Shown: in pieces, positions 11,948 through 62,664 of the stretch
Numbering within the stretch: the first letter of the stretch is position 1
Layout of the letters: every line of letters begins with the position of its first letter
From: an uncultured Clostridia bacterium
GTDB taxonomy: Bacteria > Bacillota > Clostridia > TANB77 > CAG-508
Direction of reading: 5' to 3'
DNA: 64,000 nt
NCBI GenBank assembly: GCA_934184665.1
Contig: CAKPSX010000001.1
Span: 1,688-65,687 of the forward strand
Program-made: the position numbers and the translations under genes
Notes under the pieces: generated by a model
Databases searched by the model: none
Seen by the model: only the letters and a program-made list of their open reading frames with translations
Told to the model about the DNA's origin: nothing

Positions 11948-11951
11948 CAAC

Positions 11952-12821: not shown

Positions 12822-12971
12822 AAACCCAATTTAAAGTGTTATAGCCAAAAACTAAAAATGATAATAAATATCAAGCAACTTATATATAAAAGAAAAAGCG
12901 GAATTATAGTGTTTAAACTATATCCGCTTTTAAAAAAATATATAATTAAAAGTACTGTTTATATTAATATA

Positions 12972-13445: not shown

Positions 13446-13675
13446 GAATTCTCCCTCATCTTTTGTTAGAACAATTATAATATTAATTTTTACAATATTC
13501 AAGTATTTTCTTAAAAAAAATTGTAAAAAATTTAAAAAAATGTAAAAAACCAATTTATCCTTAGAGTAATAAATGTTTGAGAAAGACATATAAATAAATA
13601 TCAAGACTTTTACTAAAAAAATTGTCAAAAAAAGAAATATATGATAAGATATATTATAGGTAAAAGGAGAAAGAT

Positions 13676-20800: not shown

Positions 20801-20812
20801 AGGGGGATGGAA

Positions 20813-25753: not shown

Positions 25754-25916
25754 ATTACCAAAAACATTATGGAAACCTTATGCAAATAACTGGAAAACCA
25801 GAAAAACAAGTCAAAAAAACAAAAAAATTGTCAAAAAAAATTGTAAAAATCTGAAAATTGTGATATCATATAAAGAGGATTAAAAGTAGAATATTATGAT
25901 AAATGGAGGAAAGATG

Positions 25917-33800: not shown

Positions 33801-35283
33801 TACAGAAGAAAAAGAATTATCAAAAGGAGAAACAAAAGTAAATACAGAATTAAAAGAAGGCGAAAGCTCAACAATAAATGCAAGAGACTATAAATCTACA
33901 ATAATAACAGATAATGCAATAAGTTCAGTAATGAGAAAAAATAATGATAATAATCAAGAGCAAATTACACAAAAAGATTTACAATGGCATTTAACAAAAT
34001 CAGGAAATACATCAATAGCAGTAGATGATATAGATGATTTACAATGGTATTTCCGTAATGATAATAATGAACTTGTAAAAATAGATGTAAACTCATTAAA
34101 GGAAGGCTCTTATGATGTAAATGCAAGATTGCAGATATCATCATTAATGAATGGAAACTTTAATAAAGGTGTAAATGTATCATCATACAGTTTACCATTT
34201 AAAGTTCAACTAGAATATACAGCTGATCAAGAAAGTAATGTAGGAGAAGATGGAGGAAACTTTGATTACAACTGGGATAAATTCAACTTTGGTATTGCAG
34301 AAAGAGCAAGAGAAGACATATATGTTGATAAAACAATAAAAAATCTAAAAATAACATTAGCAAATGGTCAAGTATTAACAGAAGGTAACCCATATACAGA
34401 TAGTATGGATTATGTAAGAGCACTTGGTTCAAAAGATGTAATTAATAGTAGAGAAGATTTCAACAAAGCATTTACAAAACAAAGAGAAATCTTTATGGAA
34501 ATGGATACAGAATTAATCCAAGGTGCAACACTAGAATTATTATATGAAATAACAGTAACAAATAATAGTGAAGTAGACTATGAATATGACAGAAGTGTAA
34601 TTGGTGGAGAAGGAGCAAATTATGAAAAATATTACTACTATGGTGAAGCTAAAACAAACCCAATAAAACAATCTGTAGAATATTTAGTAGACTATGTTGA
34701 CCCAGACTTAGTATGTGAAGCTGGTACAGGTACAGCAAATGCAAACTGGCAAAAAATAGAGGCTAAGACATTATATGATGCAGGTAATATTTCGAAAGAA
34801 GTTTATGAAGGAAAGAAAAACGATGAAGGCAAAGTACTAGATCAAATGAAAGGTGTAGTAGATGGAAAATATACAATACTTGTAACAAATGCATTCAAAA
34901 ACTTAGCAGCAGGAGAATCACATTCAGAAACATTATATGCAAGTAAATTGCTAGCAACACAATCAGCAGAACATGTATATGAAAACCATACAGAAATAAT
35001 CCAATTAAATGGTAGAATGGCAAGAACAATAGATGGAACAAACAACGGAAAACAAATTGCTAAAACATATATACCAGGAAATTATATGCCAAGCACAAAA
35101 GCGAGAGCAGCAGAAGAAACATCATTAACAAGATTACATGAACAAGATGATGATGCAATAACAGTAAGAATAACACCACCAACAGGTCTAGAAAACAATG
35201 CAATTATATATATATCAGTAGGAGTAATAGTATTAGTACTACTAGCAGGTGGAATATACTTCATAAAAAGAAAAACAGTATAA
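30880..35283 (+). CDS. giant secreted surface protein B' (about 1467 aa), paralog of B
   Basis: The start overlaps the A' stop by 14 nt. The signal peptide is MKRSSKGVKDVSKLKKIFFILMMTLLIVLLKNSTCQA. The N-terminal domain contains VYCARQD...CTDTQYGLWYF. A CnaB motif YTAIETSNPHSGY is present. The C-terminus is EQDDDAITVRITPPTGLENNAIIYISVGVIVLVLLAGGIYFIKRKTV. Confidence 0.85.
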   Translation: MKRSSKGVKDVSKLKKIFFILMMTLLIVLLKNSTCQATAQEVLGLKENAVGKTVYTGGSELYNRWGNFENVYCARQDKTLNDGQNYNCQVVYYIELKGNEANFCNRTNPTLRPATGSGTDYRWGQLANILALGKNKGYRTSAGCTDTQYGLWYFLGTQNEWIKEKFGASWMIQSSYFTHARWQTTVKLGKSYSDKCANLAKNNSGYKGTVRIYWLEAKNQSVNQSLMIVELEDSKESEMILIDKQDSNDKSYLGGVSFKVKNDASGMYIKKADVVDEKNSDRYVYEVKDPSTSNTEYWTSDISQAMTFTTGTEKNYKGIQIKGIPSGTYTAIETSNPHSGYEGSINKTFSISSTSYEDYTNSNILYNTKQEQGSGNVKISGTVWEDIASNKENDGKGNSKKDSGEKGIEGVKVYWKSADGSIIASTTTGSDGSYTMRTNIDLGFCRWYIDQAAYNRINNSYVEFAYNGLTYTTVAYASNGDADTSKVIENSSSRTSLDNSFSQISNKGVSTNGSRLEYTYSSNPEVGSTRIATLSSPTSMSDFTVTADTKNVLSKYKFLQTYPALDTQERSGCIRHHYVSCSKHGSHHVCDEYGSKTVSWEISNVNCGLYKREQPDLAIGTDIEKVDVIMKGQQYTYKYGQRGLPDGSYKYDKVSFSDRNTEKYNRPVNPSDIAYINKDGNNPDDLQVYVTYNVRVQNQSRNLMAEVQEIVNYYDANYSLFDGNWRDVSKNGDRYNSNGFKAAYNQQLQGVKLAPGEESETISLTLKVNNDVVKELIQKDRLFKNVSEIYMYSSYYGSNALCAEYQTASEKGRTGKQYAGIDKDSAPGNAEIKISNNTLDISTFEDDTGIAPTFMLIKADNYKQISGTVYEDSTTVNDNKRLGDGQNNGEKGVANVRVDLLKVNDDGSTQLADLYYIENGEAKTKQATTYTDANGHYEFGNNAKEGEDSGVVVDNYIVKYTYGNNTESTVKYGDTEEKELSKGETKVNTELKEGESSTINARDYKSTIITDNAISSVMRKNNDNNQEQITQKDLQWHLTKSGNTSIAVDDIDDLQWYFRNDNNELVKIDVNSLKEGSYDVNARLQISSLMNGNFNKGVNVSSYSLPFKVQLEYTADQESNVGEDGGNFDYNWDKFNFGIAERAREDIYVDKTIKNLKITLANGQVLTEGNPYTDSMDYVRALGSKDVINSREDFNKAFTKQREIFMEMDTELIQGATLELLYEITVTNNSEVDYEYDRSVIGGEGANYEKYYYYGEAKTNPIKQSVEYLVDYVDPDLVCEAGTGTANANWQKIEAKTLYDAGNISKEVYEGKKNDEGKVLDQMKGVVDGKYTILVTNAFKNLAAGESHSETLYASKLLATQSAEHVYENHTEIIQLNGRMARTIDGTNNGKQIAKTYIPGNYMPSTKARAAEETSLTRLHEQDDDAITVRITPPTGLENNAIIYISVGVIVLVLLAGGIYFIKRKTV

Positions 35284-48013: not shown

Positions 48014-48111
48014 TTGATTTCGTTATCTCCTTTATTGATAATGTAAATATAATATCGTATTTAAGAATTATTTTCAAGATAAAAATATAAATTTTGAAAG
48101 GATGTGTTTGT

Positions 48112-48906
48112 ATGAGTTTAAAAAGAAAAAATATAATAATTATTATTGCAATTATTGTATCAATTACAATAGTAGGATTAGCAATAGAAAAAATAATAAA
48201 TGAGAAAGATTATAATAGTAATATAATACAAGAAGAATTAGACGAAGAGGAGATTGATACTAATGAATCTCAAAATAATGATAAAGAAAATTATAATGGT
48301 GAACATGATGGAGATTTTGACTATGATATTGAAGAAACAGAAAATGTCATAAAAAGTGGTGACAATAATTCTAGTGATAATAATTCTACAAATAAAATTT
48401 ATATTTATATAACAGGAGAAGTCAACAACCAAGGTGTTGTAATTTTAAACAAAGGAAGTAGGGTGAAAGATGCAATAGATATTGCAGGAGGCATAACAGA
48501 AAAGGCAAATATAACTAAGTTGAATTTAGCTTATGTACTTGAAGATGGGATGAAAATTAATATACCAAATGATAATGATTTAAGGGAAAATCCAGATTTT
48601 AAATATATTATAAATGGCTCAGATGATGGAAATGATGAAGTTAGAAAAGAGAATGTTGATTCATCTAATGAATCTAAAACAGTGACATCATCATCCTCGT
48701 CAAGCAAGAAAAGTGGAATAGTAAATATAAATACTGCATCTCAGACAGAACTTGAAACTTTGCCAGGTATAGGACCTTCTATAGCACTAAAAATAATTAA
48801 TTATAGGAAAGAGAATGGAAAGTTTTCATCTATTGAAGATATAAAAAATGTGAGTGGTATAGGAGAGAATAAATTTAATGAATTAAAAAAATATATTGGA
48901 GTTTAA
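48112..48906 (+). CDS. comEA: competence protein ComEA (DNA-binding, tandem helix-hairpin-helix)
   Basis: An N-terminal TM helix, an acidic linker and a SLBB-like domain are present. The C-terminal HhH pair reads NINTASQTELETLPGIGPSIALKIINYRKENGKFSSIEDIKNVSGIGENKFNELKKYI. Confidence 0.85.
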   Translation: MSLKRKNIIIIIAIIVSITIVGLAIEKIINEKDYNSNIIQEELDEEEIDTNESQNNDKENYNGEHDGDFDYDIEETENVIKSGDNNSSDNNSTNKIYIYITGEVNNQGVVILNKGSRVKDAIDIAGGITEKANITKLNLAYVLEDGMKINIPNDNDLRENPDFKYIINGSDDGNDEVRKENVDSSNESKTVTSSSSSSKKSGIVNINTASQTELETLPGIGPSIALKIINYRKENGKFSSIEDIKNVSGIGENKFNELKKYIGV

Positions 48907-48952
48907 TTAATATAATTTATTTAAGCTTATGTAAACATATTTTGGAAAATAC

Positions 48953-48987
48953 TTGTAAAAAGGAACAAAGTATGATAAAATAGTTAA
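48953..48987 (+). promoter_or_regulatory. promoter (TTGTAA-17-TAAAAT) upstream of the GC-rich FGE-like gene
   Basis: Read directly from the sequence. It lies in host-like AT-rich sequence just before the GC jump. Confidence 0.4.
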
Positions 48988-49042
48988 CATAATGGCAATG
49001 AGCCATGTTGGAACCGATACTGACAATAGGAGGTAAAACACA

Positions 49043-50119
49043 ATGAAAGATCGGTATAGCAAGATTGTGCTGGAGGCTTGCAAGGGTGTAAGCTTCGCAT
49101 TCTCTGAAGGACAGGCAGGCCAGCTCATCATCAAAGCTTTAAAGGCTGATGAAAAGAGCAATGACACCAAGGAGAACATCAGCAAGAAAGTTGATGTTGT
49201 GGTTTCTGACAAAAACAGTGAAGATGTAAGCCCCACAAATGGTGCTAACAATATTGTTAGCAAAAAGGAGGAAGACTATGATATCTCCTCTGGTGCAGAT
49301 GTGACGGTCATCGAGAACTACATGAATCCTCCGATCCCGGAAGGATACAAGTATGTATCTGGAAAATGGGACAATGGATTTGTCATTGAGAAGAAACTCG
49401 ATAAGAGTGAATTCGTCTGGATTCCTGTTGGAGCGCTGAACCCTGATGGAACAATCGATGGTCAGAACTTCTGCGAGAAGTTCGGAAGAAGAAGAATTAC
49501 CCAGATTAGCCATGCTAATCAGAAGTTCACGATTGATGTGAACATGTACAAGGAACCTCTGGAGGGAGAATTCCTGAAGCAGTATGAGAGCGTAAAAAAG
49601 TATGGGGGATTCTATATCTCTCGATACAATATCTCGTCTGACTGGAAGGAATTCCCTCGGTCTGTCAAGGGCAGAATGCCTTTGACAAATATTACAGCCG
49701 AGGATGCAAAAGAAGTGGCAACTCGACTGGAAACTAACGGCTCGACTGTTAAGAGCCATCTTGTGTATGGGGCAGAGTATGACTCTGTTCTGGCTTGGCT
49801 GATTAAGTTCAAGATCAAAAGCAAGGAAGATGTTATGGAAGATTCCACCTATTGGGGAAACTTCTGGAGCAACTTTGATTCTCCGCAGTCTATCACTCAG
49901 ACTGGCAGCTTTGATGACTGGGCTGCAGGCGGTATTTATGACCTTGCGGGCAATGTGTCTGAATGGACGCAGGAGAAGAATGGTGATGGCAAATATATTG
50001 CCAGAGGTGGTAATGTCTACAGTAGCGAGAGGAAGGGAACAGTTTCTTCTCGCCATGAGCTGGGCAATAAGCGGAAAAACCGTGAAACTGGTTTCCGTAT
50101 TGCACTTTGGATTAAGTGA
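49043..50119 (+). CDS. formylglycine-generating-enzyme (FGE/SUMF1, DUF323)-family protein encoded in a compositionally foreign GC-rich island
   Basis: An RBS (AGGAGG) is present. The C-terminal FGE-family motifs are DLAGNVSEWTQE, YIARGGNVYSS and NRETGFRIAL. Codon usage is GC-rich (ctg, ggc, cag). The many overlapping antisense ORFs here are the usual artefact of high GC. Confidence 0.7.
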   Translation: MKDRYSKIVLEACKGVSFAFSEGQAGQLIIKALKADEKSNDTKENISKKVDVVVSDKNSEDVSPTNGANNIVSKKEEDYDISSGADVTVIENYMNPPIPEGYKYVSGKWDNGFVIEKKLDKSEFVWIPVGALNPDGTIDGQNFCEKFGRRRITQISHANQKFTIDVNMYKEPLEGEFLKQYESVKKYGGFYISRYNISSDWKEFPRSVKGRMPLTNITAEDAKEVATRLETNGSTVKSHLVYGAEYDSVLAWLIKFKIKSKEDVMEDSTYWGNFWSNFDSPQSITQTGSFDDWAAGGIYDLAGNVSEWTQEKNGDGKYIARGGNVYSSERKGTVSSRHELGNKRKNRETGFRIALWIK

Positions 50120-50151
50120 TATTAATCTAAAACAATAATCTTGCTAAATTT

Positions 50152-50185
50152 AGAAGGAGGCTTTGAAAATTCAAAGCCTCCTTCT
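50152..50185. other. perfect 15-bp-stem palindrome immediately downstream of the GC-rich gene
   Basis: The hairpin reads agaaggaggctttga, loop aaat, tcaaagcctccttct. There is no U-tract on either side. Confidence 0.6.
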
Positions 50186-50214
50186 AAAATATGTAAATTT
50201 TTCAGCAAATTATA

Positions 50215-50243
50215 TTGACAAATGCAAGTTGATATATTATAAT
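50215..50243 (+). promoter_or_regulatory. perfect consensus sigma-A promoter (TTGACA-17-TATAAT) driving tRNA-fMet
   Basis: Read directly from the sequence. The tRNA starts 16 nt downstream of the -10 element. Confidence 0.7.
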
Positions 50244-50259
50244 AATAATTGTCAGACAT

Positions 50260-50335
50260 CGCGGGGTGGAGCAGTTGGCAGCTCGTTGGGCTCATAACCC
50301 AAAGGTCGGAGGTTCGAGTCCTCCCCCCGCAACCA
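50260..50335 (+). tRNA. initiator tRNA-fMet (anticodon CAU)
   Basis: The 5' end is CGCGGGG with a C1:A72 mismatch. The anticodon stem carries three G-C pairs (ttGGGctcataaCCCaa). The T-arm is GGTTCGAGTCC and the 3' end is CCA. Confidence 0.9.
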
Positions 50336-50410: not shown

Positions 50411-52822
50411 ACATTTATAAATAACAATATTACTGAAAAGGAAAAAGAGCTGAATTCAAAGCAAAAAGAATATAAAAATAGTTTAAATGAATATAACAGC
50501 AAGCAAAAAGAATTAGAGAAAGCAGAAGCTCAAATAAATTCTTCACAGGAAGAAATAGGTAGCAAAAAAGCAGAACTTGAAAATGGTAAAACTCAATATG
50601 AAAACGGAATTCAATCATTAAATGCTGGAATTGCAGAATGTGAAAAATTACTTCAAAATCCTAATTTACCAGAAAGTCAAAAACAAGTAATAGAGCAAAA
50701 ATTAGCAGGGTATAAGATTCAGCTAGAACAAACAAAAACAGCTTATGATGATTTTATAAATAACACATATAATTCAAGCATAAATGCACTAAATGAAGCA
50801 CAAAAAACATTAGATACAAAAAAAGCTGAATATAACAGTGGAAAGCAACAATTGGAAGATGCCAATACTCAACTACAATCAGCAAAAAAACAACTGGATA
50901 GCGGTAAAACGTCATTAAATTCTGCAAAAAGTAAATTGAAATCAGCGAAACAGGAATATAATACAAATAAGGCTAAATTAGATGAGGCGAAAACAGAGCT
51001 ACAAAATAAAGAGCAAGAATATAATGATAAATTGCAGGAATTCCAAGAAAAAGAGCCAGAAGCGGTTTCAGAAATAAATGATAATGAAGAAAAATTAGAA
51101 GATAGTAGAAAAGAATTGGATAAGTTATTATTTCCAACATATTCAATTGATAACAGAAGAGAATTGCAAGGAGGAGAAGGATATAGAATATATGAAACAG
51201 TATCAGAAATTGTAGATTCTCTAGCAAAAGTATTCCCAGTATTCTTATATTTTGTTGCTGCTTTGGTTACTTTAACAACAATGGCAAGATTCGTAGGAGA
51301 TGAAAGAATCAATAATGGAACTTTAAAATCACTTGGATATAGTGATCAAGATGTTATAAAGAAATTTACTATATATGGACTTGTGGCAGGAACAACAGGA
51401 ACAATAATAGGTGTTTTATTAGGACACACAATTATTCCAATGATAGTATATAATGCTTATCGTCATGGATTTACACTTCCAAAAATAGAATTACACTTTT
51501 ACTCAGGCATCACTATAGCAGCAATTATTTTATCTTTAATAAGTAGTGTTATTCCAGCAAGAATAATTGCGACTAAAGAATTAAGAGAAACAACAGCAAG
51601 CCTATTGCAACCTAAAGCACCAAAAGCAGGAACTAAGATAATGTTAGAAAGAATAAAACCAATGTGGAATAAAATGAAATTCACACATAAAGTTACTGCA
51701 AGAAATATTTTTAGATACAAAAAAAGAATGTTTATGACAATATTTGGAGTAGCTGGTGCAGCATCAATATTATTTGCGGGATTTAGTGTTCAATATTCTA
51801 TTTCTGGAATAAATGAAAGACAATTTGAACATATAATAAAATATGATGCAATAGTGGCTTTAAATGATAATCTAACAAATGATGAGGAAAACGAACTAGA
51901 AACTTTATTAAATGATGAAGCGGTTGACAGCTATACATCTGTATTTTATGAAGAAGTTTCAAAAACAGCAGGAAGAAATAATGATAAACAATCAATAAAA
52001 CTAATTGTACCAGAAAACACAGAAGAATTTAATAAATATATTTCTATTTTAAATAGAAAAACTGGTGAAAATATGCAACTAGAAGATGATGGAGTTGTAA
52101 TTTCAGAAAGATTATCTACACTTTTAAATGTAAAACAAGGAGATACAATTACTTACACAGATAGCACTGACAAAAAAAGAGAAGTCAAAATATCTGGAAT
52201 ATGTGAAATGTATGCAGGGCACTTTATTTGCATGAATGAAAATGAATATAAAAACATCTATGGAGAAGACCTAAAAACAAATGCAAAACTACTAATGTTC
52301 AAGGATTCAAGCTTAGAAAACACACAAAATCAATCTGCAAAATTTATGGAATTATCAGCAGTAAAAGGTGTTGTTCAAAACACAACATTATATAATCAGA
52401 TAAACACGATTGTAGAATCCTTAAATAAAATAATGATTGTATTAATCATTATTGCAGTATTACTTGCAATTGTTATATTATATAATTTAACTAATATAAA
52501 TGTTGCAGAAAGAATTAGGGAATTATGTACAATTAAAGTTTTGGGATTCTATGATAAAGAAACAACAATGTACATTTACCGAGAAACAATAATTTTATCA
52601 GCAATAGGAATTGTAGTTGGATGGATTATTGGAATAATTCTCCATAACTATATATTAACAGTTGTACCACCAGATGAAGTAATGTTTAATCCTGTTATTT
52701 GGATTGGGGCATATGTTATACCATTTGTTTGCATCTCAGTAGTAACATTTATTTTAAAATACTATGTAAATAGTAAATTGAAAAATGTTGATATGTTAGA
52801 AGCATTGAAATCAGTTGATTAG
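50411..52822 (+). pseudogene. 5'-truncated FtsX/MacB-type ABC permease (coiled-coil ectodomain + FtsX TM bundles), lacking its N-terminal TM1 and start
   Basis: The open frame begins right after the stop at 50408-50410, 30 nt past the tRNA terminator. It encodes about 145 aa of coiled coil with no ATG, GTG or TTG until the TTG at 50852. Downstream are FtsX hallmarks (FVAALVTLTTMARFVGDERINNGTLKSLGYS and a second FtsX repeat with TIKVLGFYDKE). Confidence 0.6.
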
Positions 52823-53151: not shown

Positions 53152-53577
53152 GTGGATTTAAATATATTCAATAATAGGGAGATTAATAATAATAAAAATA
53201 ATGATTTTATAAGTACATTTATAGAAGAATTACAAAATGCACTTAAAAATATTATAAATGAAAGCATAGGTATGAACCAAAAAGAAAATGTATCAAATGA
53301 ATCTCATTTAAATAATGAAAACGATGTGCTAGAGGGATATAATTTATATGAAACAAAAAAAGTTTTCTTAGATAATAAAAGTTGGAAAGGAAATGATTTA
53401 GCTTGGGTAATAGATGATAAATCTGTTTGTTTATCAGAACATGGAGATGGCAGTCCATACTTTATATCTGAAATAGATTTACCAAAGAATGCAAAAGCCA
53501 GAGAAGTATATGAAAAAATAAATGGTAAGTATATTTACAATCCTAATATAACGGCTAAACTAAAAGAAATAACTTAA
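53152..53577 (+). CDS. hypothetical protein (141 aa, ORFan)
   Basis: An RBS (AGGAGG) is followed by a TTG start. There are no TM segments. It is preceded by decayed ORF fragments. Confidence 0.4.
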   Translation: MDLNIFNNREINNNKNNDFISTFIEELQNALKNIINESIGMNQKENVSNESHLNNENDVLEGYNLYETKKVFLDNKSWKGNDLAWVIDDKSVCLSEHGDGSPYFISEIDLPKNAKAREVYEKINGKYIYNPNITAKLKEIT

Positions 53578-53968
53578 TAATAAGGTGAAAAAATAACAAA
53601 ATTATATTTAGCTTACTCTTAAATTAATTTATTATTTATATTAATAAAATAATTGCATAGAAAAGTTTTGTAAATTAATGGTTTGCGGAGATTACTCATA
53701 AAGCGAAGGTATTTAGATTAAGTATTACCAACAAAACCAGAAGTGTCAAGGAATTGAACGTTCCTTGATTTTTTTGCTTTACTAAAAAAACGGCGAAAAA
53801 ACGGCGGAAGTTTTGAAAATGAAAACTTATTAGAAAAGAAAAGTACAATTATTATTGTTTTAAAGTGCAAAATTTGCACTTTAAGTTCGAGGTGTTAGGC
53901 AGTTTATTTTGAAAGAAAAAAGTGGTATAATGTGGAAAAAAGAAACTTGATAATATATGGAGGAATGT

Positions 53969-55075
53969 ATGATGTATAATTCAAAACTATCAAAAGATCC
54001 TTTTAAATCTACTATTAATGATTTAAAAATGTTCGAACAAACACAATATTGTTTTGAGTATATAAAACAAGAAAGTAATAGTAAATCGGATGAAGAAATA
54101 ATGGTACATGCGGAAATTGCATCAGCTTGTTTTAGACAAGCTAGTGAGTATTATAAAGCAGCAATAAGCGTTAGCTTGTGTACAAGTCCTTTATTATTTT
54201 CTTATGCACTTAATAATATATTAAAGGGAACTTGTTATTTAAAAACATTTGATAATGAAATTATCTCTGGATTTTCTAGTCATGGATTCAGTGTAAAAAA
54301 TGAAGATATTTATGAAAATATTTTAAAATCTAAGATACAAGTTAAATGGCATGGAGCAGCTGTTTCATTATTAAAATTATTTGGAAATTCGATAGAATCA
54401 CAAGAAATTGAATTTAATAAAATTTTAAGGCATATACCAGGAATAAGAGATACATATTTTAAAACTACAGGAGAAGTATCATTATTAGCCATCAAAGATA
54501 AAAATGACACATCTAAATATATAATTAAAGGTAATGCATTAAATGATGAAATAAGTAATATAGCTCAGGAATTTGGAATTGTAGGAACTATTATACCAAG
54601 AGAAGAGTCTTGTTATTGTTATCTTAATATGAAATGTAAAAATAGTATAGATGAAGGAATATATTCAAAAGATAATATTTTCTATAGAAATTATTTAAAT
54701 ATACCAGATAGATTTAAAGAGGGAATAAAAGATATAAATATTATATTCTATTGCTATTTATTAATTATGTCTTATGGGATGCTAGTTAGATATAATGCTC
54801 ATAAATGGGAAAAATTTATCGATAAAAAAATTTCAAAAGAAGCAACATTAATTGAATTGTCAGTGACTAATGCTGTAGTAAATTTTTATTATCAAATACA
54901 TTATATATTGTTCAATTATTATTATAAGGAGGATTCATATAATGATTTGGATGTAAAGAAAGTAATAAGGGAATCAACTAAGGATATTATGAACAATATT
55001 ACAAGGGAAATAAGGCATCATAATTTACAATATAATAGTCATGAATTATTACCATGGGATGAAAATTATAAATGA
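53969..55075 (+). CDS. hypothetical cytoplasmic protein (about 368 aa), candidate defence/Abi-like component
   Basis: An RBS (GGAGG) precedes MMYNSK. There are no TM helices. The protein is Cys/aromatic-rich and I recognise no catalytic motif. It is the first gene of a co-oriented three-gene cluster. Confidence 0.45.
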   Translation: MMYNSKLSKDPFKSTINDLKMFEQTQYCFEYIKQESNSKSDEEIMVHAEIASACFRQASEYYKAAISVSLCTSPLLFSYALNNILKGTCYLKTFDNEIISGFSSHGFSVKNEDIYENILKSKIQVKWHGAAVSLLKLFGNSIESQEIEFNKILRHIPGIRDTYFKTTGEVSLLAIKDKNDTSKYIIKGNALNDEISNIAQEFGIVGTIIPREESCYCYLNMKCKNSIDEGIYSKDNIFYRNYLNIPDRFKEGIKDINIIFYCYLLIMSYGMLVRYNAHKWEKFIDKKISKEATLIELSVTNAVVNFYYQIHYILFNYYYKEDSYNDLDVKKVIRESTKDIMNNITREIRHHNLQYNSHELLPWDENYK

Positions 55076-55099
55076 TTAGCAAAAATGGAGGAATAAAGA

Positions 55100-55786
55100 A
55101 TGCAAAATATAATTAATACAATTGCAACTATTATAGTTTCAATAGGTGGAACAGGGATTATAATTTTAGGAATATCAAAATACATTGGAGGAATACTTGC
55201 AAAAAGTATAGAAGAAAAATATAAAAATAAACTTGATAAAGATTTAGAAGAATATAAAGGAAAAATAAATGAACGATTAAATAAATTAGATAAGATTGAA
55301 GAAAAAGCATTATATATATCTAAATTTAATTATGATAATGAATATAAAATTTATATGGAAATATGGCCAAAATTAAATGATTGTATTTCAAAAACGATGA
55401 GATTGTATCCTATAGGTATTGAAAATGTTCCAATTGATGAGGAAGAACTTAAAAAATATAAAGAAAACAAATATGAGGAGTTTCGTAATAGCTTTAATGA
55501 GTTTGTTCTTTGTGTTGATAAATATGCTCCGTTTTATCAAGAGGAATATTATAATTATTTTAATTTAATAAAAGACGAATGTTTTTCTATAGGTGATATG
55601 TTTTTTATGTATGAATTTGAAGTAAAATATAATGAAAGTTTTAGAGGATGCAGGGATTTGAAAATGACAACAAAAGAGTGGAAGGAAGTTAAAGGAAAAG
55701 AAGATAAAATAATAAAAATAAAAAAGGAACTTTTAGAAAAAATAAGAGAATATTTAAACGGATTAAAATTGGAGGAAAATAAGTAG
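55100..55786 (+). CDS. hypothetical protein with a single N-terminal TM helix (228 aa)
   Basis: The TM helix is MQNIINTIATIIVSIGGTGIIILGISKYIGGILA, followed by a charged coiled-coil-like domain. Confidence 0.45.
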   Translation: MQNIINTIATIIVSIGGTGIIILGISKYIGGILAKSIEEKYKNKLDKDLEEYKGKINERLNKLDKIEEKALYISKFNYDNEYKIYMEIWPKLNDCISKTMRLYPIGIENVPIDEEELKKYKENKYEEFRNSFNEFVLCVDKYAPFYQEEYYNYFNLIKDECFSIGDMFFMYEFEVKYNESFRGCRDLKMTTKEWKEVKGKEDKIIKIKKELLEKIREYLNGLKLEENK

Positions 55787-56304
55787 TGAATAAATATGAG
55801 ATATTAAAAGATATAATAATACCAATTTTAGCTTCTATAATTGGAGGGATATTCACTTATATTGGAGTATATATAACAATAAAACATGAGAAAAATAAAG
55901 AAAAAGAAGAACAAATATTGTTTAATAAGCCATTATTTTGTAGATTAGATTATAGGCAAGAATATGATGCTAAAAAGGCAGTTGATTTTGTTTTAGGAGT
56001 TGGAAATTTCGATGAAAAAGCGGGTCAAATATTTGGAGTTATAAAAAATACAGATAATGCTATATTAATTATTGATGGAGTTACAGTTAATGGAAAAAAA
56101 TATAAATCGATATATGGAGATGTAGTTGATAAGAATCAGATATTTAATTTGTATGTGAATGTTTCAGAAAAACTAAAAGAAGATGATGAGGTTATCTTTA
56201 TAGTAAAAGATATTATGGAGAACGCTTACAAATATAAAGTAAATATAGAATATAAAGATGAAGAAAATTGTGAAATGATAGAATTTAAAGAAATAAAAAA
56301 ATAG
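55786..56304 (+). CDS. hypothetical protein with a single N-terminal TM helix (172 aa), translationally coupled to the upstream gene
   Basis: The GTG start overlaps the upstream stop (TAGTG). The TM helix is IIIPILASIIGGIFTYIGVYITI. Confidence 0.45.
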   Translation: MNKYEILKDIIIPILASIIGGIFTYIGVYITIKHEKNKEKEEQILFNKPLFCRLDYRQEYDAKKAVDFVLGVGNFDEKAGQIFGVIKNTDNAILIIDGVTVNGKKYKSIYGDVVDKNQIFNLYVNVSEKLKEDDEVIFIVKDIMENAYKYKVNIEYKDEENCEMIEFKEIKK

Positions 56305-56333
56305 GCGGGATTAATTATAAAATCTCGTCTATT

Positions 56334-57476
56334 TTAATTAGTTTTAACAGTAAGAAATTCTTCCATAACATTAGCAACATCCTTAAACTCATCTTCAAAG
56401 AAATGAGAATAAATTCTATCAGTAGTTTGCACACTTGAATGACCAACTTTTCTACTAATAATCTGAGTTTGAATACCCTTAGAAATCATAAGAGTAACAT
56501 TAGTATGTCGCAATCCATGAAAAGTAATTCTTTTTAAATTATGTTTCTTAATAACTTGATCCAAAATCTTAGTGGGTGTATCGGGATGCATATCAGCACC
56601 ATACTCAGTAGTAAAAATTCTTTTACTACCTTGCCATTTAGAACCAAGTAAAAGTTTTTGTTTTAATTGTTGGTTTTGATATTTTCTTAATATCTGTACA
56701 GTAGTATCGGAAATATAATTTACTCTTTCACTATGTTCAGTTTTAGTACCTTTTTCAAAAATCTTGCCATAAGCATATTGAGTAGTTTTATTAATCTCAA
56801 CTCTACGAGTCTCAAAATCAATATCTTTCCAAGTAAGTCCAGTTAATTCACCTCGTCTACATCCTAAATCTAATGCTAACATTATAATTGCTTGATATTT
56901 TATAGGCTCTTGAGCTAGTGCAGTAATAAGTTTTTCTACTTCATCAGGAGTATAAAATTGTATATTGGTTTTAGCTCTTTTAGGTTTATCAATCTTACTA
57001 TTAGGATTATTCTTAATATATTCACATTTAACAGCATATACTAACATATTATTTATAATACAATAATAACTTTGAATTGTAGTAGGACTAAGAGGCTTAC
57101 CTCTGGCAGATGTATAACCGTGTCTTAAAAAGTGATAAAAATTTTCAAGTATTTTTACATTTAATTCTTTTACTTTTACATATCCAATTTTCTTCATAAC
57201 TAAACGAAGTCTATATTCATAATTAATGTATGTTTTAGGTGAAAGAATATCTTTTTGATACTTTAAATATTCCATGCTTAAATCTTTTACAGTAAGATTA
57301 TTTTTTTGAAAAGTTGATCCATCTCTAAGCATGGTTTTAAGTTCATATTCTCTAAGTTTAGCTTCACTTTTTTTACCAATAAAAGTTTCGTAATGCCTTA
57401 TTTTTGTTCCACCATTATATCCAAGAACAATTTCTATTTGATATTTTTTATTTCTTTCAATTTCTCGTACACTCAA
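56334..57476 (-). mobile_element. int: tyrosine site-specific integrase (phage integrase family)
   Basis: Catalytic residues are R (ALDLGCRRGELTGL), HxxR (FHGLRHTNVT) and Y (VQTTDRIYSHF). An N-terminal arm/SAM-like domain is present. Confidence 0.85.
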
Positions 57477-58363
57477 TTTTTTACCTCCTTGTTCATAGAA
57501 GTAATAAGCTTTTTATAATCCTCAGGAAGCGTTTCAATATTTTCTTGATTGTAAGTTTCAATTAAATTGTTTTTTATCAATTCTGTGATTTCGAATAAAC
57601 AAAATTTTAAATTTCTTTTTGTTTCATCATAATAACAACTACTAAGTGAACTTATAGTATTTAATAAAACATTTAACTTATTTTTATTCAAAGATTTTTT
57701 TGTACAAGTTTCACAATACTTTTTTAATTGATTTAACTCATTACTTAAATCTAAACAGGTATCGTCATTTAAAGTAGAATGTATTGATTTAGATAAATTA
57801 TTTTTTAAAGTATCAATTTCAGTATTCCATATAGAGTAAAGGGCTTTTAAGTCTTTTTTGTTTTCTAAACAGTAGTATAGATAATCTTCAAGTTTTTCAA
57901 TGTTATAAAAATATTGTATAGATTTTAATACATTATTAAGACAATTATATTCATGTAATAAAGCTGTAAAATCTTTTAAATCAATGTTTTCTAACCATTT
58001 ACTAAATACTATTGGAGCAATCTTATCTTCAACTAAAGATAATCTTAATTCATCAGGAATACGATTGTTGGTATATTGTATATCAAGGATATTTTCAATT
58101 GCATCATCAGATAGTTTTAATTTTTTACCTATATCAACAGATTCATTTGTCTTGTTTTCACAATCTTCATCTAATAAGTATTCATATGTGACATTATAAA
58201 ATTCTTTCAACATTTTTAATTGTATAGTGTTTGGAATTCTTTCTATAGTTGTATTTTCATAGTTTCTTATAGATTGAATACCTATTCCAAGTTCAGAGCA
58301 TACTTGCTCTTGAGTCATTCCTTTTTCTTCTCTTAATAATTTTAATTTTTCAGAAAGTTTCAT
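57473..58363 (-). CDS. XRE-family HTH transcriptional regulator with a C-terminal uncharacterised domain
   Basis: The N-terminus is MKLSEKLKLLREEKGMTQEQVCSELGIGIQSIRNYENT. The gene has a 4-nt overlap with the integrase start. Confidence 0.75.
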   Translation of the reverse strand: MKLSEKLKLLREEKGMTQEQVCSELGIGIQSIRNYENTTIERIPNTIQLKMLKEFYNVTYEYLLDEDCENKTNESVDIGKKLKLSDDAIENILDIQYTNNRIPDELRLSLVEDKIAPIVFSKWLENIDLKDFTALLHEYNCLNNVLKSIQYFYNIEKLEDYLYYCLENKKDLKALYSIWNTEIDTLKNNLSKSIHSTLNDDTCLDLSNELNQLKKYCETCTKKSLNKNKLNVLLNTISSLSSCYYDETKRNLKFCLFEITELIKNNLIETYNQENIETLPEDYKKLITSMNKEVKN

Positions 58364-58549
58364 AATTTTCTCCTTCCATGTTTGAAAAATATATCAAAAT
58401 AAATTTCAAACATCTTTGTATGTATTTATTGAATTAAATACATAATTGTTGTTTAATATCTTTATCAACACGATAATGTTTATTATAATCACATTATACA
58501 TAGTTGTGTTGCAAATGTCAAGATAATAATAAAGATTGGAGGGAAAAAT

Positions 58550-58723
58550 ATGGAAAATGAAGAAGAAAAGCTAAATCAAATAGTTAATGAATTAAGAAGA
58601 GAAAAGGCTAGAATTTGGAGAAATAACAATAAAGAAAAAGTAAAAGAAATTAACAAAAGATATTGGCTAAATAAAGCTAAAAAAGAATTAGCAAGAAGAG
58701 AAAACAAAGAAGAGGTGAAATAA
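58550..58723 (+). CDS. small basic protein (57 aa), not in the ORF track
   Basis: An RBS (attggaggg) precedes MENEEEKLNQIVNELRREKARIWRNNNKEKVKEINKRYWLNKAKKELARRENKEEVK. The stop lies 2 nt before the xis start. Confidence 0.4.
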   Translation: MENEEEKLNQIVNELRREKARIWRNNNKEKVKEINKRYWLNKAKKELARRENKEEVK

Positions 58724-58725
58724 TC

Positions 58726-58920
58726 ATGAATGAAGTATTTAATATTAAAGAATTAGCAAATTATTTACATTGTAGCGAATCAACAGTAAGAAAGTTGGTT
58801 CGCAATAAAGCAATTCCAAGTTTTAGAATTGCAAACAGAATATTTTTTAGAAAGAATTTTATAGATGTATGGATTGATAATCAATGCAGTAGTAATTGTG
58901 AGGTGACTTGCGATGAATAA
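58726..58920 (+). CDS. xis: excisionase-family HTH DNA-binding protein (Xis-like)
   Basis: The sequence IKELANYLHCSESTVRKLVRNKAIPSFRIANRIFFRKNFIDVWIDNQ matches the excisionase/MerR-like HTH pattern. Confidence 0.6.
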   Translation: MNEVFNIKELANYLHCSESTVRKLVRNKAIPSFRIANRIFFRKNFIDVWIDNQCSSNCEVTCDE

Positions 58921-59076
58921 AAATAAAAAAAGAGAAAAAAGAATGTATTACATAAGCGAAACAGAATACATATATTTTCCTCTAATAGTCCGTTCAAAGA
59001 CCTATTTGTATTCTACTATAAATACAAATAAAAATCAATTAGTAAAATGTATTTTATGCAGTAAGTAGGTGATTTT

Positions 59077-59529
59077 ATGGCAAAAACTAAAAGACCAAAA
59101 CCACCTGTAAATTATAGCTTTGAAAGCACAAATAATAGATATGATTTTACTAAGATATGTAGAGATATGCAAAGATCAGAAGCATGGAAACAATTAAAAC
59201 CAAGGCAAATAGGACTATACTTTTTGCTTAAATCAAAATTTACTGTTAATTCTAAAACTCTTGAAAATAATGCAGAAAATATTTCATTTACTACAAGTGA
59301 AGCTAAAAGATACTATGGTGATTTAAGAACTTTTAGGGCAGATATGGATATCCTTATTAATTTAGGATTTATAAAACAAGTCATGAGTGGAGTGCCTAGA
59401 ATGGAAGCATCTATTTATGGCTTTTCTGATAGATGGAAAGATTATGGAACAGATAAATTTTATATCCCTGATAAAGATAAAAGATATAAAAAGAAATCTA
59501 AAGAAAAGCAATTAAATTTATTGAATTGA
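59077..59529 (+). CDS. hypothetical mobile-element protein (150 aa), possibly a replication or DNA-binding protein
   Basis: A basic N-terminus and a KPRQIGLYFLL segment are present. Its context is the integrase/xis module. Confidence 0.35.
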   Translation: MAKTKRPKPPVNYSFESTNNRYDFTKICRDMQRSEAWKQLKPRQIGLYFLLKSKFTVNSKTLENNAENISFTTSEAKRYYGDLRTFRADMDILINLGFIKQVMSGVPRMEASIYGFSDRWKDYGTDKFYIPDKDKRYKKKSKEKQLNLLN

Positions 59530-59870
59530 TGGTAATAATATAAATGATGTGTTGTTTCACACATATTAAAGGACAAAAATAAAAAAGAAGCTAAAAGTTA
59601 AAGAAAGTCCTAAAAACAGATAATTATAATAGAATTTGTGGTTGTGTGATTTAACACATATATATATATGAATTTAAGTTTTAATATATGTGATTTTACA
59701 TATATGATATGTGTAAATTAACATACGATAAAAAACATCCCCCGAGGGGTAACGATTTATAATTTGGATTTTTTCAAGACCCACAGCTCACCTACATTCA
59801 CACAAAATAAAATTTTTACGTGAGTTTTTTGGAAAAATTAAAATAATCTTAGAAAAAGGAGGAAAAGAAG

Positions 59871-60290
59871 ATGATTAAAACAAATCAAAAAAATAAAATA
59901 GAAAAAAGTTTAAATGAAAGAATAGAAGAAAATAAAATGTATTTTATAAAATTAGATAGAATGAATAACAAAAAATTTGAAGAAAGAAAAATCAGAAGAG
60001 AAAAGATTCAAAAAATGTGGAAACAACCTAAAGGCAATAAATATATAGAACTATATGAAGGATTATGTAGATATGCAATTAAGCATGGAAACAGTATTAA
60101 TTATAAAACAGAGAAATTCTTAAATGATTTTTACAAAGATAATAAAGAAACATTACAAGATATGAGAATCTGTGAAATAATAGAAGGATTAAAAATGTTA
60201 AATCTTATAGAATTAATTAATATTGATGATGATAGTATAAAAATAACTGATTATAAAGCCGTACTTCAAATAAAAGAAATGATAAGATGA
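59871..60290 (+). CDS. hypothetical protein (139 aa)
   Basis: An RBS (aaaggagg) is present. The protein is basic and I recognise no motif. A hairpin terminator follows at about 60296-60330. Confidence 0.4.
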   Translation: MIKTNQKNKIEKSLNERIEENKMYFIKLDRMNNKKFEERKIRREKIQKMWKQPKGNKYIELYEGLCRYAIKHGNSINYKTEKFLNDFYKDNKETLQDMRICEIIEGLKMLNLIELINIDDDSIKITDYKAVLQIKEMIR

Positions 60291-60465
60291 AAACAACAAA
60301 TTGCTAGTAGATAAACTACTGGCTTCTTTATTTATTTTATAAATATATTATATTTTATGATATATTATTATTTTTTTTGGATAAAATATATATATTTTAT
60401 TGTAAAATAATATATTATATGATATAAAATAATTATAAATATAATAATTATTATAGAGGTGAAAA

Positions 60466-60699: not shown

Positions 60700-62664
60700 A
60701 TGATTAAAGATATTATTGAAAACAATGACAATGTAGATGTGAATAAAAGTAAAATAGAAAAATTAAAACAAGTAATACCAAACTGTTTTGATAAACATGG
60801 AAATTTAGATATTGAATTATTAAAAAAAGAGTTTAGTGATAGTTTAGATTTCACAAAAGAAAGTTTTGAACTTAATTTTTTAGGAAAATCATATGCTAAA
60901 ATGGTTGCTGGATTAGATACAGAAACAGTTATAGAACCTGATATAAAAAACAATTTAAAAGAAGAAAACAAAAACAGTAAAAATATTTATATAAGTGGTG
61001 ACAATTTAGATGCATTAAAACACTTATTAAAAGCATATGAAAGAAAGATAAAATGCATTTATATAGATCCTCCATATAATACAGGTAGTGATGGATTTGT
61101 TTATAATGATACATTTTGTTTTTCAAAAAAGAATTTAATGGAAAAATTAGATGTTAGTGAAGAAGAAGCTGAACGAATCATAAATTTGACATCTTCAAAC
61201 TCTTCTTCTCATAGTGCATGGTTGACATTTATCCTTCCAAGGATAATTTTAGGAAAAAATCTTTTAAAGGAAAACGGGGCTATATTTATTTCTATTGGTG
61301 AAGATGAGTTTTCTAATTTAAAATTACTTTGTGATAATGTATTTGGAGAAGAAAACTATTTAACAACTATTTCAAGACTTATGAAATCTGGTGGCAATAA
61401 AGGAGAATTTTTTTCGCCTAATATAGACTACGTTTTAGTATATGCAAAAAATAAATATGAATTAGAGCCTTTTAGAGAAGAACTAAGTGAAGATTTGGTT
61501 AATAACATATATAACAAAATAGACGATGATGGTAACAATTATAGAGAAATGGGATTATATCAAGCAGGCTTGGAAATAAGACCAAACCAAAGATATTATA
61601 TTCAATGCCCAGATGGATCTTATGTTATACCAAAAGGAAATACTTTTCCTGAAAGAATAGGACAATGCGAAAAAGTAATACCAGAAAGTGGAGATGGTGT
61701 ATGGAGATGGATACCAGAAAGATTTCTTGTTGAATTAGAGCAAGGTAATATAATTTTTAAAGAAACATCAACATCAGCTTTGGTTGACGAAAAAGGTAAT
61801 AAATCTAAATGGAACATTTATACAAAAATAATGTTAAATGATAGACAAGAAACTGGTAAAGTTCCCGTTAATTTTATTGGAGATTGTGAAAATAGAAAAA
61901 GTTCTGCAGAATTAAAAGAGTTAGATATTCCATTTGATTTTGCAAAACCAACAGATATGCTTACGAAATTAATTAATTTTATGAAATTTGAAGAAAATGA
62001 TATTATCTTAGATTATTTTTCTGGGTCTGCCAGCACAGCACATGCAATATTAAGGTTAAATAGTGATGAAAAATATGAAGGAAATACAAGACGATTTATT
62101 ATGGTTCAATTAAACGAAAAATGCAAAGAGAATAGTGAAGCATTTAAGAAGGGATACAATACTATAGATGAAATAGGGCAAGAAAGAATAAGAAGGGCAG
62201 CTAAACAAATAAAGGAAAATACAAATGCAGATATAGATTATGGATTCAAACACTATATATTGAAAGAAACACCAGATGATTTATTAAATAAATTAGAATT
62301 ATTTAAACCAGAGATTGTAAATGATAATTACAATATATATAAGGAATATGGAATAGATACTATTTTAGAAACATGGAAATTGAAAGATGGATATGAATTT
62401 ACAGCAAATATAGATATGATTGATTGTGGTGGCTATGAAGCATATAAATGCAAAGAATGTTTATACTTAATAAATCCTAATATAACTGTAAAAAATATAC
62501 AAGCACTATTAGATAAATATAATCAAGATGATACATTTGTATGTGATAAATTAGTGATATTTGGATATTCTTTTAGATTCGATGAAATAGAAATGATCAA
62601 AAACAATATAAAACAGGTAAAGAATTTTAAGAATATAGACGTTAAAGTATATACAAGATATTAG
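60700..62664 (+). CDS. mod: Type III restriction-modification system methyltransferase (Mod; beta-class N6-adenine MTase)
   Basis: Motif IV (IYIDPPYNTGSD) lies N-terminal to motif I (ILDYFSGSASTAHA), with a variable TRD between them. The protein is 654 aa and lies directly upstream of a helicase-like res gene. Confidence 0.85.
   Translation: MIKDIIENNDNVDVNKSKIEKLKQVIPNCFDKHGNLDIELLKKEFSDSLDFTKESFELNFLGKSYAKMVAGLDTETVIEPDIKNNLKEENKNSKNIYISGDNLDALKHLLKAYERKIKCIYIDPPYNTGSDGFVYNDTFCFSKKNLMEKLDVSEEEAERIINLTSSNSSSHSAWLTFILPRIILGKNLLKENGAIFISIGEDEFSNLKLLCDNVFGEENYLTTISRLMKSGGNKGEFFSPNIDYVLVYAKNKYELEPFREELSEDLVNNIYNKIDDDGNNYREMGLYQAGLEIRPNQRYYIQCPDGSYVIPKGNTFPERIGQCEKVIPESGDGVWRWIPERFLVELEQGNIIFKETSTSALVDEKGNKSKWNIYTKIMLNDRQETGKVPVNFIGDCENRKSSAELKELDIPFDFAKPTDMLTKLINFMKFEENDIILDYFSGSASTAHAILRLNSDEKYEGNTRRFIMVQLNEKCKENSEAFKKGYNTIDEIGQERIRRAAKQIKENTNADIDYGFKHYILKETPDDLLNKLELFKPEIVNDNYNIYKEYGIDTILETWKLKDGYEFTANIDMIDCGGYEAYKCKECLYLINPNITVKNIQALLDKYNQDDTFVCDKLVIFGYSFRFDEIEMIKNNIKQVKNFKNIDVKVYTRY

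Follow-up and report, generated by a model that had tools for sequence, protein, structure and literature searches.

The 64,000-nt window analysed here, part of contig CAKPSX010000001.1 from an uncultured Clostridia bacterium (GenBank assembly GCA_934184665.1), contains an abrupt GC-rich island of about 1.1 kb, which lies between a comEA-like gene and the gene for the initiator tRNA (tRNA-fMet) and encodes a single protein of 358 amino acids (aa). What is this protein, and how did a gene of such composition come to stand at this site? An earlier note had described the product as similar to formylglycine-generating enzyme (FGE) and SUMF1, and had read the island as a recent horizontal acquisition from a mid-GC donor. 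We replace the vague label of a foreign FGE-like gene with that of a stand-alone, non-diversifying relative of the variable proteins of diversity-generating retroelements (DGRs). The gene is of a known kind, that of the DGR variable protein, in an unusual state: it stands without a retroelement, and the tip that once varied is frozen. With a probability of roughly three in four, we judge the island to be a cassette for a stranded, non-diversifying lectin-fold protein of this family, fixed at one site and originating in a GC-richer gene pool.

Composition and extent of the island

When the window was divided into 1-kb bins, positions 49001-50000 had a GC fraction of 0.445, compared with 0.195-0.322 in the other 63 bins. 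In 200-nt windows the GC fraction was 0.415-0.495 across 49000-50099 and 0.18-0.33 on both sides. The gene itself has a GC fraction of 0.448 versus 0.275 for the whole window, with 0.47, 0.38 and 0.50 at the first, second and third codon positions, and the excess is mostly synonymous. GC content at third codon positions (GC3) is 0.499, compared with 0.108-0.154 in the neighbouring LytR, PBP5, comEA and FtsX genes. The sharp compositional change described earlier is thus borne out by both window sizes and by the GC3 contrast. The codon usage is likewise foreign to this low-GC genome: four-fold degenerate sites carry A, T, G and C at fractions of.22,.40,.22 and.17, G-ending codons make up 60% of AAR, GAR and CAR codons, and C-ending codons 52% of NNY codons, a usage that looks like that of an ordinary mid-GC Firmicute. 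Adenine mutagenesis acting on the whole gene was considered as a source of this composition (A 0.18 and T 0.32 at third positions) and was rejected, because codon-class analysis revealed a T-to-C shift in two-fold codons as strong as the depletion of third-position adenine, indicating ordinary mid-GC usage.

The single 358-aa gene with its ribosome-binding site was called correctly before; AGGAGG lies at 49028-49033, 9 nt before the ATG. This one coding sequence (CDS), with a promoter and leader of its own and a conserved hairpin on the 3' side, makes up a compact cassette spanning 48950-50188 (Table 1).

The protein belongs to a family of DGR variable proteins

The family-conserved N-terminal module forms a β-hairpin in the AlphaFold model, with strands at aa 16-22 and 28-34 (predicted local distance difference test, pLDDT, 66-86). 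It is followed by a linker with pLDDT below 50 at aa 50-59 and 65-88, the length of which differs among family members. Neither a signal peptide nor a transmembrane segment was found in the protein. The C-terminal half matches the Pfam family FGE-sulfatase (PF03781; E 6.8e-6, 26.4 bits, cut-off 23.3) over aa 207-354 only, corresponding to profile positions 86-254. A first AlphaFold run from a shallow family alignment reached a pLDDT of 39 and was discarded; an AlphaFold2 model built on a diverse alignment of 50%-cluster representatives reached a pLDDT of 85 and a predicted template modelling score of 0.79. When this model was compared with the Protein Data Bank (PDB) by Foldseek, the best match was the DGR variable protein TvpA (2y3c; E 5e-6, probability 1.00), and further matches were TaqVP (5vf4), Mtd (1yu*), PvdO, PorK, EgtB and OvoA. 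TaqVP and Mtd are the other two DGR variable proteins with solved structures. When PDB sequences were searched with a profile, SUMF2 (E 0.012) and TvpA were retrieved, both on the motif GNVxEWT..RGG..GFR.

TvpA of Treponema denticola is the type example of the FGE subtype of C-type-lectin DGR targets, category 'b' (Wu et al. 2018, PMC5758913). The window protein shares with it the C-terminal scaffold GNVxEWT...RGG...GFR; in both families the variable region occupies the last ~35 residues, and the window protein is likewise non-catalytic despite its FGE motif. Sequence identity between the two proteins is only 13%. In contrast to TvpA, which is a lipoprotein and is diversified by a DGR, the window protein has its 35-aa N-terminal module and disordered linker in place of a signal peptide, has no template repeat (TR), reverse transcriptase (RT) or Avd, and is not hypervariable.

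The protein search returned 1583 homologs, with identity falling in steps from 99% within the protein's own cluster to 88% in a sister lineage and then to at most 49% for the remaining homologs. The main clade of the family consists of ~300-aa proteins of uncultured Clostridia that are near-identical except in the last ~35 residues, the RGG...GFR stretch, where N, Y, D, S, G and C are abundant. Near-identity outside a variable C-terminus is the signature of a DGR, and the context of one member, at the locus that we call L010 (other family loci are numbered in the same way), confirms it. There the target gene (8001-8891) is followed by bAvd (PF22296; NCBIfam DivGenRetAVD NF033474, 78 bits), RVT_1 and a TR of 117 nt (10394-10510). 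Compared with the variable region (VR) at 8765-8881, 15 of the 16 mismatches fall at TR adenines. The window protein can be aligned over its full length with family proteins that have proven TR/VR pairs. The L010 cassette is carried by a ~10-kb mobilizable element (4016-14200) that is inserted in a GH94 glycoside-phosphorylase gene and encodes an AAA_14 ATPase, HTH_36, a Mob_Pre relaxase, DUF6076 and a serine recombinase. Cassettes of this canonical type, on elements with Mob_Pre and serine recombinase, occur at L010 and in ~10-13 GTDB species representatives. The L010 target is 45% identical to the window protein overall and ~56% in the lectin core, and has a homologous promoter and leader and a homologous 3' hairpin. 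L010 differs in possessing Avd, RT and a TR whose mismatches are adenine-specific, none of which is present in the window, and in the GC3 of its target, 0.32 rather than 0.50. At L083, a quite different target stands beside an RT and Avd that are near-identical to those of L010 (97% aa).

Most members of the family stand apart from any retroelement. An RT lies within 10 kb at 13 of 80 species-representative family loci, a TR that is at least 95% A-compatible at 10 of 81, and ~85% of the 81 loci have no local retroelement (RT or TR), so that surveys led by the RT miss most of the family. Main-clade orphans without local RT or TR keep a DGR-like VR composition. Other deep branches (L076, L088, L077, L093, L080 and L095) have C-termini that contain K or E and no RT nearby.

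GC enrichment is a family trait in low-GC hosts. Over 80 loci the median GC fraction of the target gene is 0.38 against 0.27 in the flanks, and the L010 target, at GC3 0.32, exceeds its own avd and RT genes (0.16-0.19). At L020 and L096 the target is at native composition, in hosts of 0.52-0.55 GC, the genomes as such having 54-55% GC. Relatives found in the GTDB scan include Clostridium sp. CAG:343, CAG:389 and metagenome-assembled genomes from Hadza gut, and the family is widespread in uncultured low-GC gut Clostridia.

The window copy stands alone and is not being diversified

DGR parts were sought in the 64 kb of the window genome and in 10 kb on either side in the other assemblies. A tblastn search of the window with the L010 Avd and RT gave nothing (best E 0.17), and neither RVT_1 nor bAvd occurs among the genes called within 10 kb in six assemblies. 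An adenine-tolerant scan for a TR matching 49985-50110 found none in the window or in the flanks of L004-L006: the best non-self score was 103 of 126 positions compatible, only 47 of them identical, whereas the positive control, L010, scored 116 of 117 compatible and 101 identical.

The region equivalent to the VR shows no excess of variation. Among 30 protein variants drawn from the clusters of the window and of the sister lineage, the proportion of variable columns is 18.8% within the VR-equivalent (aa 321-352) and 17.8% elsewhere. Between the window and the sister lineage 3 of the 32 residues differ, a rate like that seen in the remainder of the protein. The family has 15 hypervariable columns, and at these the window protein has five residues of the K/E/Q/M/W type (K, K, K, K, E), compared with 11 of 522 cells in the main clade; mutagenesis of AAY codons yields NNY and cannot produce K or E. 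Over 18 positions at its 3' end, the VR-equivalent departs in 5 from the end of the L010 VR that resembles an initiation of mutagenic homing (IMH) site. The ratio of nonsynonymous to synonymous divergence (dN/dS) from the sister lineage is 0.196 overall, with 0.49 for aa 1-95, 0.135 for aa 96-320 and 0.285 for the VR-equivalent, and the window copy is thus under purifying selection along the whole protein. The low dN/dS and the lack of excess variation in the VR-equivalent indicate a functional, constrained gene that is not being diversified.

Conserved ends define a portable cassette

The 5' end of the island is a family element. A promoter scan placed TTGTAA-17-TAAAAT with a TG extension at 48953-48981, and the stretch 48950-49042 is 73-80% identical to the regions upstream of family members in unrelated genomes. 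These genomes also share the leader consensus UUAACAUAAUGGCAAUAGCCAUGUUGAAACCG (48985-49020 in the window). The leader contains a 5-bp hairpin (AUGGC/GCCAU), then GAAACCG and then the AGGAGG. All 21 sequences compared retain the hairpin, with three compensatory changes (G-C to A-U) and two G-U variants. Rfam has no family that matches the leader; its only match was the tRNA.

At the 3' end, the palindrome that the earlier note had given as a 15-bp stem at 50152-50185 is real; its perfectly complementary arms are longer, at 19 nt (50149-50167 and 50170-50188), and it is an element of the family rather than a local oddity. Folded as RNA it reaches -32.2 kcal/mol (z -8.1). Its core, CTTTGAAA(A/T)TTCA(A/G)AG, is present at 66 of 81 family loci, including every active cassette, mostly 28-61 nt (range 12-92 nt) past the stop codon and within a 16-19-bp stem. 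Among 26 diverse sequences, compensatory double changes were seen in 14 of the 16 stem pairs, and the apex is near-invariant. A T-run follows the hairpin in most members, again including the active cassette, which makes it a plausible intrinsic terminator, and we regard transcription termination as its probable role.

By analogy, the hairpin may possibly serve also as the DGR target-site hairpin of the family. In BPP-1, DGR targeting depends on a hairpin located downstream of the VR, with a stem that acts through its structure and a loop that acts through its sequence (Guo et al. 2011, PMC3240598). The window inverted repeat similarly lies just downstream of the VR-equivalent and the stop codon, and the family combines a covarying stem with a sequence-conserved apex. 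The two hairpins differ in stem length (16-19 bp, not especially GC-rich, versus 7-10 bp in BPP-1), in the loop (AAAU or AAUU versus GRNA), in distance from the end of the variable region (~50 nt from the VR-equivalent versus 4-34 nt) and in the T-run, which gives most family members the look of an ordinary terminator. The conserved leader and the covarying 3' hairpin define a portable cassette, in which the hairpin is a candidate for the element by which this DGR lineage recognises its target.

The locus has long held a family member

A sister lineage (L002, L003) is collinear with the window over 5.2 kb and has an ortholog of the gene at the same site. Nucleotide identity between the two is 95.6-96.6% in the flanks and 89.8% in the gene, and synonymous divergence (dS) is 0.32 in the island and 0.10-0.13 in the flanks. 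An elevation of roughly this size, ~3-fold, is expected when AT-biased mutation acts on GC-rich third positions.

The arrangement extends to a different species, L076, in which LytR and PBP5 are 78% and 71% identical (aa) to those of the window. In L076, as in the window, comEA is followed by a family gene, a homologous hairpin, the tRNA promoter and tRNA-fMet; the hairpin carries compensatory changes, and the junction on the tRNA side is homologous to that of the window. The L076 gene encodes 312 aa, is 49% identical to the window gene over aligned codons (42% by tblastn) and has a GC3 of 0.435. The gene therefore has one fixed position, after comEA and before the tRNA-fMet promoter, in no fewer than two lineages and in a second species, and the locus has held a family member since before the species of the window and L076 split. 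In the more distant L097-L100 (comEA ~54% identical), synteny is kept upstream and both the gene and the tRNA are absent after comEA; no lineages intermediate between L076 or the sister lineage and L097-L100 were found in the databases.

A stranded protein of proposed fixed specificity

These observations lead us to the reading given at the outset, a stranded cassette at a fixed site, which can be put as a sequence of steps. In canonical members, the neighbouring Avd, RT and TR alter the last 32 residues through mutagenesis at adenines. The copy in the window has either become detached from this machinery or stems from a branch that never had it. The protein may now bind a ligand with fixed specificity, the former variable face of the lectin fold serving as the binding surface, and the N-terminal β-hairpin and flexible linker may tether it to a partner. 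The mid-GC codon usage would point to a gene pool shared with GC-richer Clostridia. We propose that the resident allele was replaced by homologous recombination, for which the leader and hairpin could have acted as arms; ComEA may hint at uptake of DNA. Because the ends of the cassette are conserved throughout the family, allele replacement is the most economical way to reconcile an old locus with a fresh composition.

Several points weigh against this reading. The search for DGR parts covered 64 kb and 10-kb flanks, and a DGR may lie elsewhere in the chromosome. Loss of a DGR and descent from a never-diversified ancestor would both fit, and the branch of the window lineage is long and basal, shared with other RT-less members that contain K or E. 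Allele replacement rests on arithmetic given below rather than on observation, and selection specific to the gene could equally explain the composition. Lastly, a test of GC decay on rare alleles of the main clade gave the same pattern of strong (G or C) and weak (A or T) bases in the target and the RT, and was uninformative.

Persistent GC and a hairpin-dense coding sequence

Between the window and L076, dS in the flanks is 0.9-1.1, and the synonymous sites of the island are saturated (proportion of synonymous differences 0.77). At conserved residues the G/C states of third positions are uncorrelated between the two, and GC3 is 0.44-0.50 in both. By our arithmetic, with a host equilibrium GC3 of ~0.13, neutral decay would leave at most ~0.2, even from a 90% start. 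GC3 is thus too high for the age of the locus, and either the resident allele was replaced from a GC-richer pool or its composition is selected. We entertain, tentatively, the broader possibility that GC-richness is a maintained property of the cassette, through repeated allele replacement or through selection for a hairpin-dense CDS. By either route, the gene would hold a GC3 of ~0.5 over the long term within a genome of GC3 ~0.13. Its GC-rich composition and hairpin density present a small puzzle, that of a gene resisting the mutational bias of its genome.

In a sliding plot of divergence from the sister lineage, divergence climbs sharply at 48955 and is evenly raised to ~50035, and no discrete recombination tract was found within the gene.

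The folding of the CDS was compared with that of synonymous-codon shuffles. The mean minimum free energy of 150-nt windows across 49043-50116 is -43.1 kcal/mol, compared with -33.6 kcal/mol for the shuffles (z -8 to -9). The excess persists when the GC count of each codon is kept (z -5.2) and when codons are shuffled in blocks of 30 (z -5.5), and GC patchiness of the CDS is below the null. The segment 49560-49800 alone reaches -90 kcal/mol (z -5.9 against dinucleotide shuffles), and many local hairpins of 9-20 bp are predicted, for example at 49311-49363, 49663-49687 and 50025-50053. Folding z-scores are -5.5 to -6.3 in the sister lineage and -4 to -5.8 in L076, with a family median of -2.2. 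As controls, 25 host open reading frames (ORFs) had a median of -0.8 and a minimum of -5.3, and 15 ORFs of GC-rich hosts had a median of -1.7 and a minimum of -3.6. Excess folding of the CDS was also recorded for L083.

One alternative to replacement follows from these results, namely that the high GC is kept by selection on the nucleic acid itself, the CDS being selected for dense pairing, whether in a structured mRNA or in single-stranded DNA prone to form hairpins. The survival of the folding excess under conservative nulls speaks for it, as do the shared tendency in the sister lineage, L076 and the family, the weaker values in the 40 control ORFs and a GC3 of ~0.45-0.5 kept in the window and L076 although the individual G/C sites are randomised. 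Nonetheless, the individual pairs predicted for the window are not retained in the sister lineage: changed pairs are still canonical in 35% of cases versus 43% under the null, and two double changes were seen versus 1.3 expected. The excess is present on both strands (sense z -7.8, antisense -6.8) and is therefore not clearly a property of RNA, and a test in which the observed substitutions were re-placed at random sites does not separate selection from decay of a more structured ancestor. We regard selection on the nucleic acid as unlikely.

A single recent acquisition is too simple

The earlier note's acquisition from a mid-GC donor retains its foreign composition and loses its recent, single character. 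In its barest form this alternative holds that the gene arrived once, recently, from a mid-GC donor beside a tRNA gene, and that nothing more need be said. The mid-GC codon usage agrees with this, given that a GC3 of 0.50 cannot last under the host mutation bias, and the raised island dS is what AT-biased mutation would then produce. The gene is also tRNA-adjacent, as are the orphan copies L024, L061 and L066. However, the gene is found at the same site in a lineage whose flanks have diverged by 4% and in a second species whose flank dS is ~1, so that a single recent acquisition is too simple. Nor does the locus look like a tRNA-site genomic island beyond its deviant composition and codon usage: it has no bounding integrase or duplicated tRNA 3' end. 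A second copy of the tRNA-fMet 3' end was not found in the window, the nearest integrase lies 6 kb downstream of the island, beyond the tRNA, and the island is upstream of the tRNA promoter. Flanking direct repeats, which the earlier note had suggested looking for, amount to short AT-rich chance matches around the island, none of them convincing. The protein search that was to identify the donor lineage came up empty too; among 5.8 billion proteins searched there is none between 88% and ~50% identity, and hence no donor can be named. The best identity in the lectin core, 58%, is to a member in a genome of 55% GC, Candidatus Cacconaster stercorequi, and is barely above the rest. Overall, a one-off acquisition strikes us as distinctly unlikely, and the stranded cassette at a long-held site remains our preferred reading.

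At the three stand-alone copies L024, L061 and L066, a tRNA (Gly, Gln/His and Val) lies ~150-260 nt after the family gene, and tRNA neighbourhoods may be a recurrent landing place of the cassette.

Remote diversification, enzymatic function and assembly artefacts

A further alternative is that the gene is an active remote target, still diversified by a DGR elsewhere in the chromosome. The literature documents non-phage DGRs whose targets lie over 100 kb from the RT (PMC5758913). The window gene resembles such remote targets, as in chromosomal DGRs of the Treponema and Legionella type, in standing alone with no RT near. The main-clade orphans show that DGR-like VRs do persist at loci without a local RT or TR, and the window copy retains intact the kind of 3' hairpin that targeting in BPP-1 needs (PMC3240598). 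Yet a remote target is defined by an A-to-N relation to a TR of the same genome, and none was found for the window copy in 64 kb. The ordinary level of variation in the VR-equivalent among 30 variants of two lineages, its 3 differing residues in 32, the K and E residues at 5 of 15 hypervariable columns and the 5 of 18 differences from the L010 IMH-like end all argue against ongoing diversification, which we consider improbable.

That the protein is a true FGE, or a phage or anti-defence protein, is highly improbable. The Pfam match above cut-off, the likeness of the fold to PvdO, EgtB and OvoA and SUMF2 (pFGE, PDB 1y4j) as the best PDB sequence match speak for an FGE-type fold, and to that extent the original FGE-like label was apt. 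FGE, however, needs a catalytic cysteine pair in its C-terminal active site. The only cysteines of the window protein are Cys13 and Cys144, with none in aa 300-358; the Pfam match covers the C-terminal half only, and no sulfatase gene is found within 10 kb among the genes called in L004-L009. For lack of both the catalytic cysteines and a nearby sulfatase gene, the protein is not a formylglycine-generating enzyme, and its best fold matches are DGR variable proteins. The suggested phage or anti-defence context found no support either: PHROG and PADLOC models did not match the protein, tblastn found no match to it in 50,697 phage records and 72,556 plasmids, blastn of the island against phages and plasmids gave nothing, and IMG/VR held no relative. 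The window protein is also absent from JGI sources.

An assembly chimera or contaminant insertion, to which the abrupt change of composition and the end of several short-read contigs ~170-190 nt after the gene might have pointed, is virtually untenable, as both junctions agree across seven independent assemblies, the contig ends fall within the tRNA gene and away from the island edge, and the diverged sister lineage shares the structure. The exact window protein is encoded on 22 contigs of independent gut-metagenome assemblies. Among seven loci compared, on contigs from different samples and assemblers, the left junction (48850-49150) is identical base for base in all seven and the right junction (50020-50280) in six, L001 having 2 mismatches in 261 nt; three of the seven contigs stay identical through 50900. 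The short-read contigs that stop early (L001, L007, L008 and L009) end at window positions 50285-50310, which suggests a multi-copy tRNA or strain-variable downstream sequence.

Features of the locus and further observations

Table 1 Coordinates of the island, its parts and the adjoining host features within the 64-kb window
Feature	Position	Strand	Basis or details
ComEA-like gene (SLBB + HHH_3)	48094-48906		Pfam
Family-conserved promoter and 5' leader	48950-49042	+	Scan, upstream homology
CDS, stand-alone homolog of DGR variable (target) proteins	49043-50119	+	358 aa, GC 0.448, GC3 0.50
N-terminal module, ~35 aa, β-hairpin, family-conserved	49043-49147	+	Family alignment, predicted structure
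Low-complexity K/E/S/D-rich linker, predicted disordered	49148-49312	+	pLDDT, alignment
FGE-type C-type-lectin domain, aa 91-358	49313-50116	+	Pfam PF03781, Foldseek
DGR variable-region equivalent, aa 321-352, RGGNVYSSERKGTVSSRHELGNKRKNRETGFR	50003-50098	+	Aligned to L010 VR
3' hairpin, 19-nt perfect arms	50149-50188	+	Arms 50149-50167 and 50170-50188, 100% complementary
Perfect TTGACA-17-TATAAT promoter of tRNA-fMet, host context outside the island	50215-50243	+	Promoter scan
Initiator tRNA-fMet (tRNA-Met, CAT)	50260-50335	+	Rfam match
FtsX-type permease remnant, 5'-truncated, host context	50411-52822	+	Pfam FtsX

The tRNA downstream of the island has a C1xA72 mismatch and three G-C pairs in the anticodon stem, as read from its sequence; both are hallmarks of an initiator. 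Its T-stem (50305-50330) is GGAGG/CCUCC in the window and GCAAG/CUUGC in the sister lineage and L076, a multi-pair compensatory swap in an otherwise identical tRNA. The FtsX frame that follows is open from 50411 and contains no ATG, GTG or TTG before 50852. Synteny with relatives breaks here, as the earlier note had proposed in placing the island beside the initiator tRNA and a rearrangement breakpoint, and the FtsX remnant marks that breakpoint. A link between this remnant and the FtsX gene beside the L010 element was considered and rejected, as the two are only 31% identical.

A 326-aa ORF antisense to the gene (49139-50056 region, minus strand; 305-326 aa across copies) was also rejected as a candidate gene. 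It is closed in L010, L076, L083 and L093, and is open only in copies without TTA, CTA and TCA codons, which are those of the window, L002 and the GC-rich L020. Since the frame tracks the absence of these codons, it is a by-product of codon usage.

Within the wider family, the giant proteins P0269 (6477 aa), P0270 (5309 aa), P0356 and P0398 contain 7-19 stretches that match the lectin module (aa ~90-358), and in P0285 (1917 aa) the module is joined to fn3. Very large, presumably surface-exposed arrays thus also make use of the domain. Internal duplications were seen among P0003, P0004, P0005, P0033 and P0044, in the form of a 578-aa two-domain protein and of repeated NPPIPEGY or FSEKFGRR segments, and one member of this group is a target-Avd read-through fusion (464 aa, with a PF22296 tail).

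Farther downstream, the window is strain-variable at 53152-60300 (seen when L004 is compared with L005 14900-21077). The genes in this part include one that is YaaC-like, one for a tyrosine integrase (56334-57476, minus strand) and one for an HTH_3 regulator; in a second assembly of this species the place is taken by a different integrase element, with DUF6076, Phage_rep_org_N, IstB and ParB. A type III restriction-modification methylase (N6_N4_Mtase with an EcoP15I C-terminal domain) follows at 60700-62664. In L076 a methylase 33% identical to it (11310-13307) comes directly after tRNA-fMet, so that ~10 kb may be inserted between the tRNA and the restriction-modification system in the window. 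Elsewhere, positions 15959-35100 hold a paralogous duplication of ~10 kb, with 72-86% nucleotide identity and a start-to-start spacing of ~10 kb, which takes in genes for giant surface proteins (1613, 1648 and 1665 aa) that contain SdrD_B, DUF11 and SpaA-type domains.

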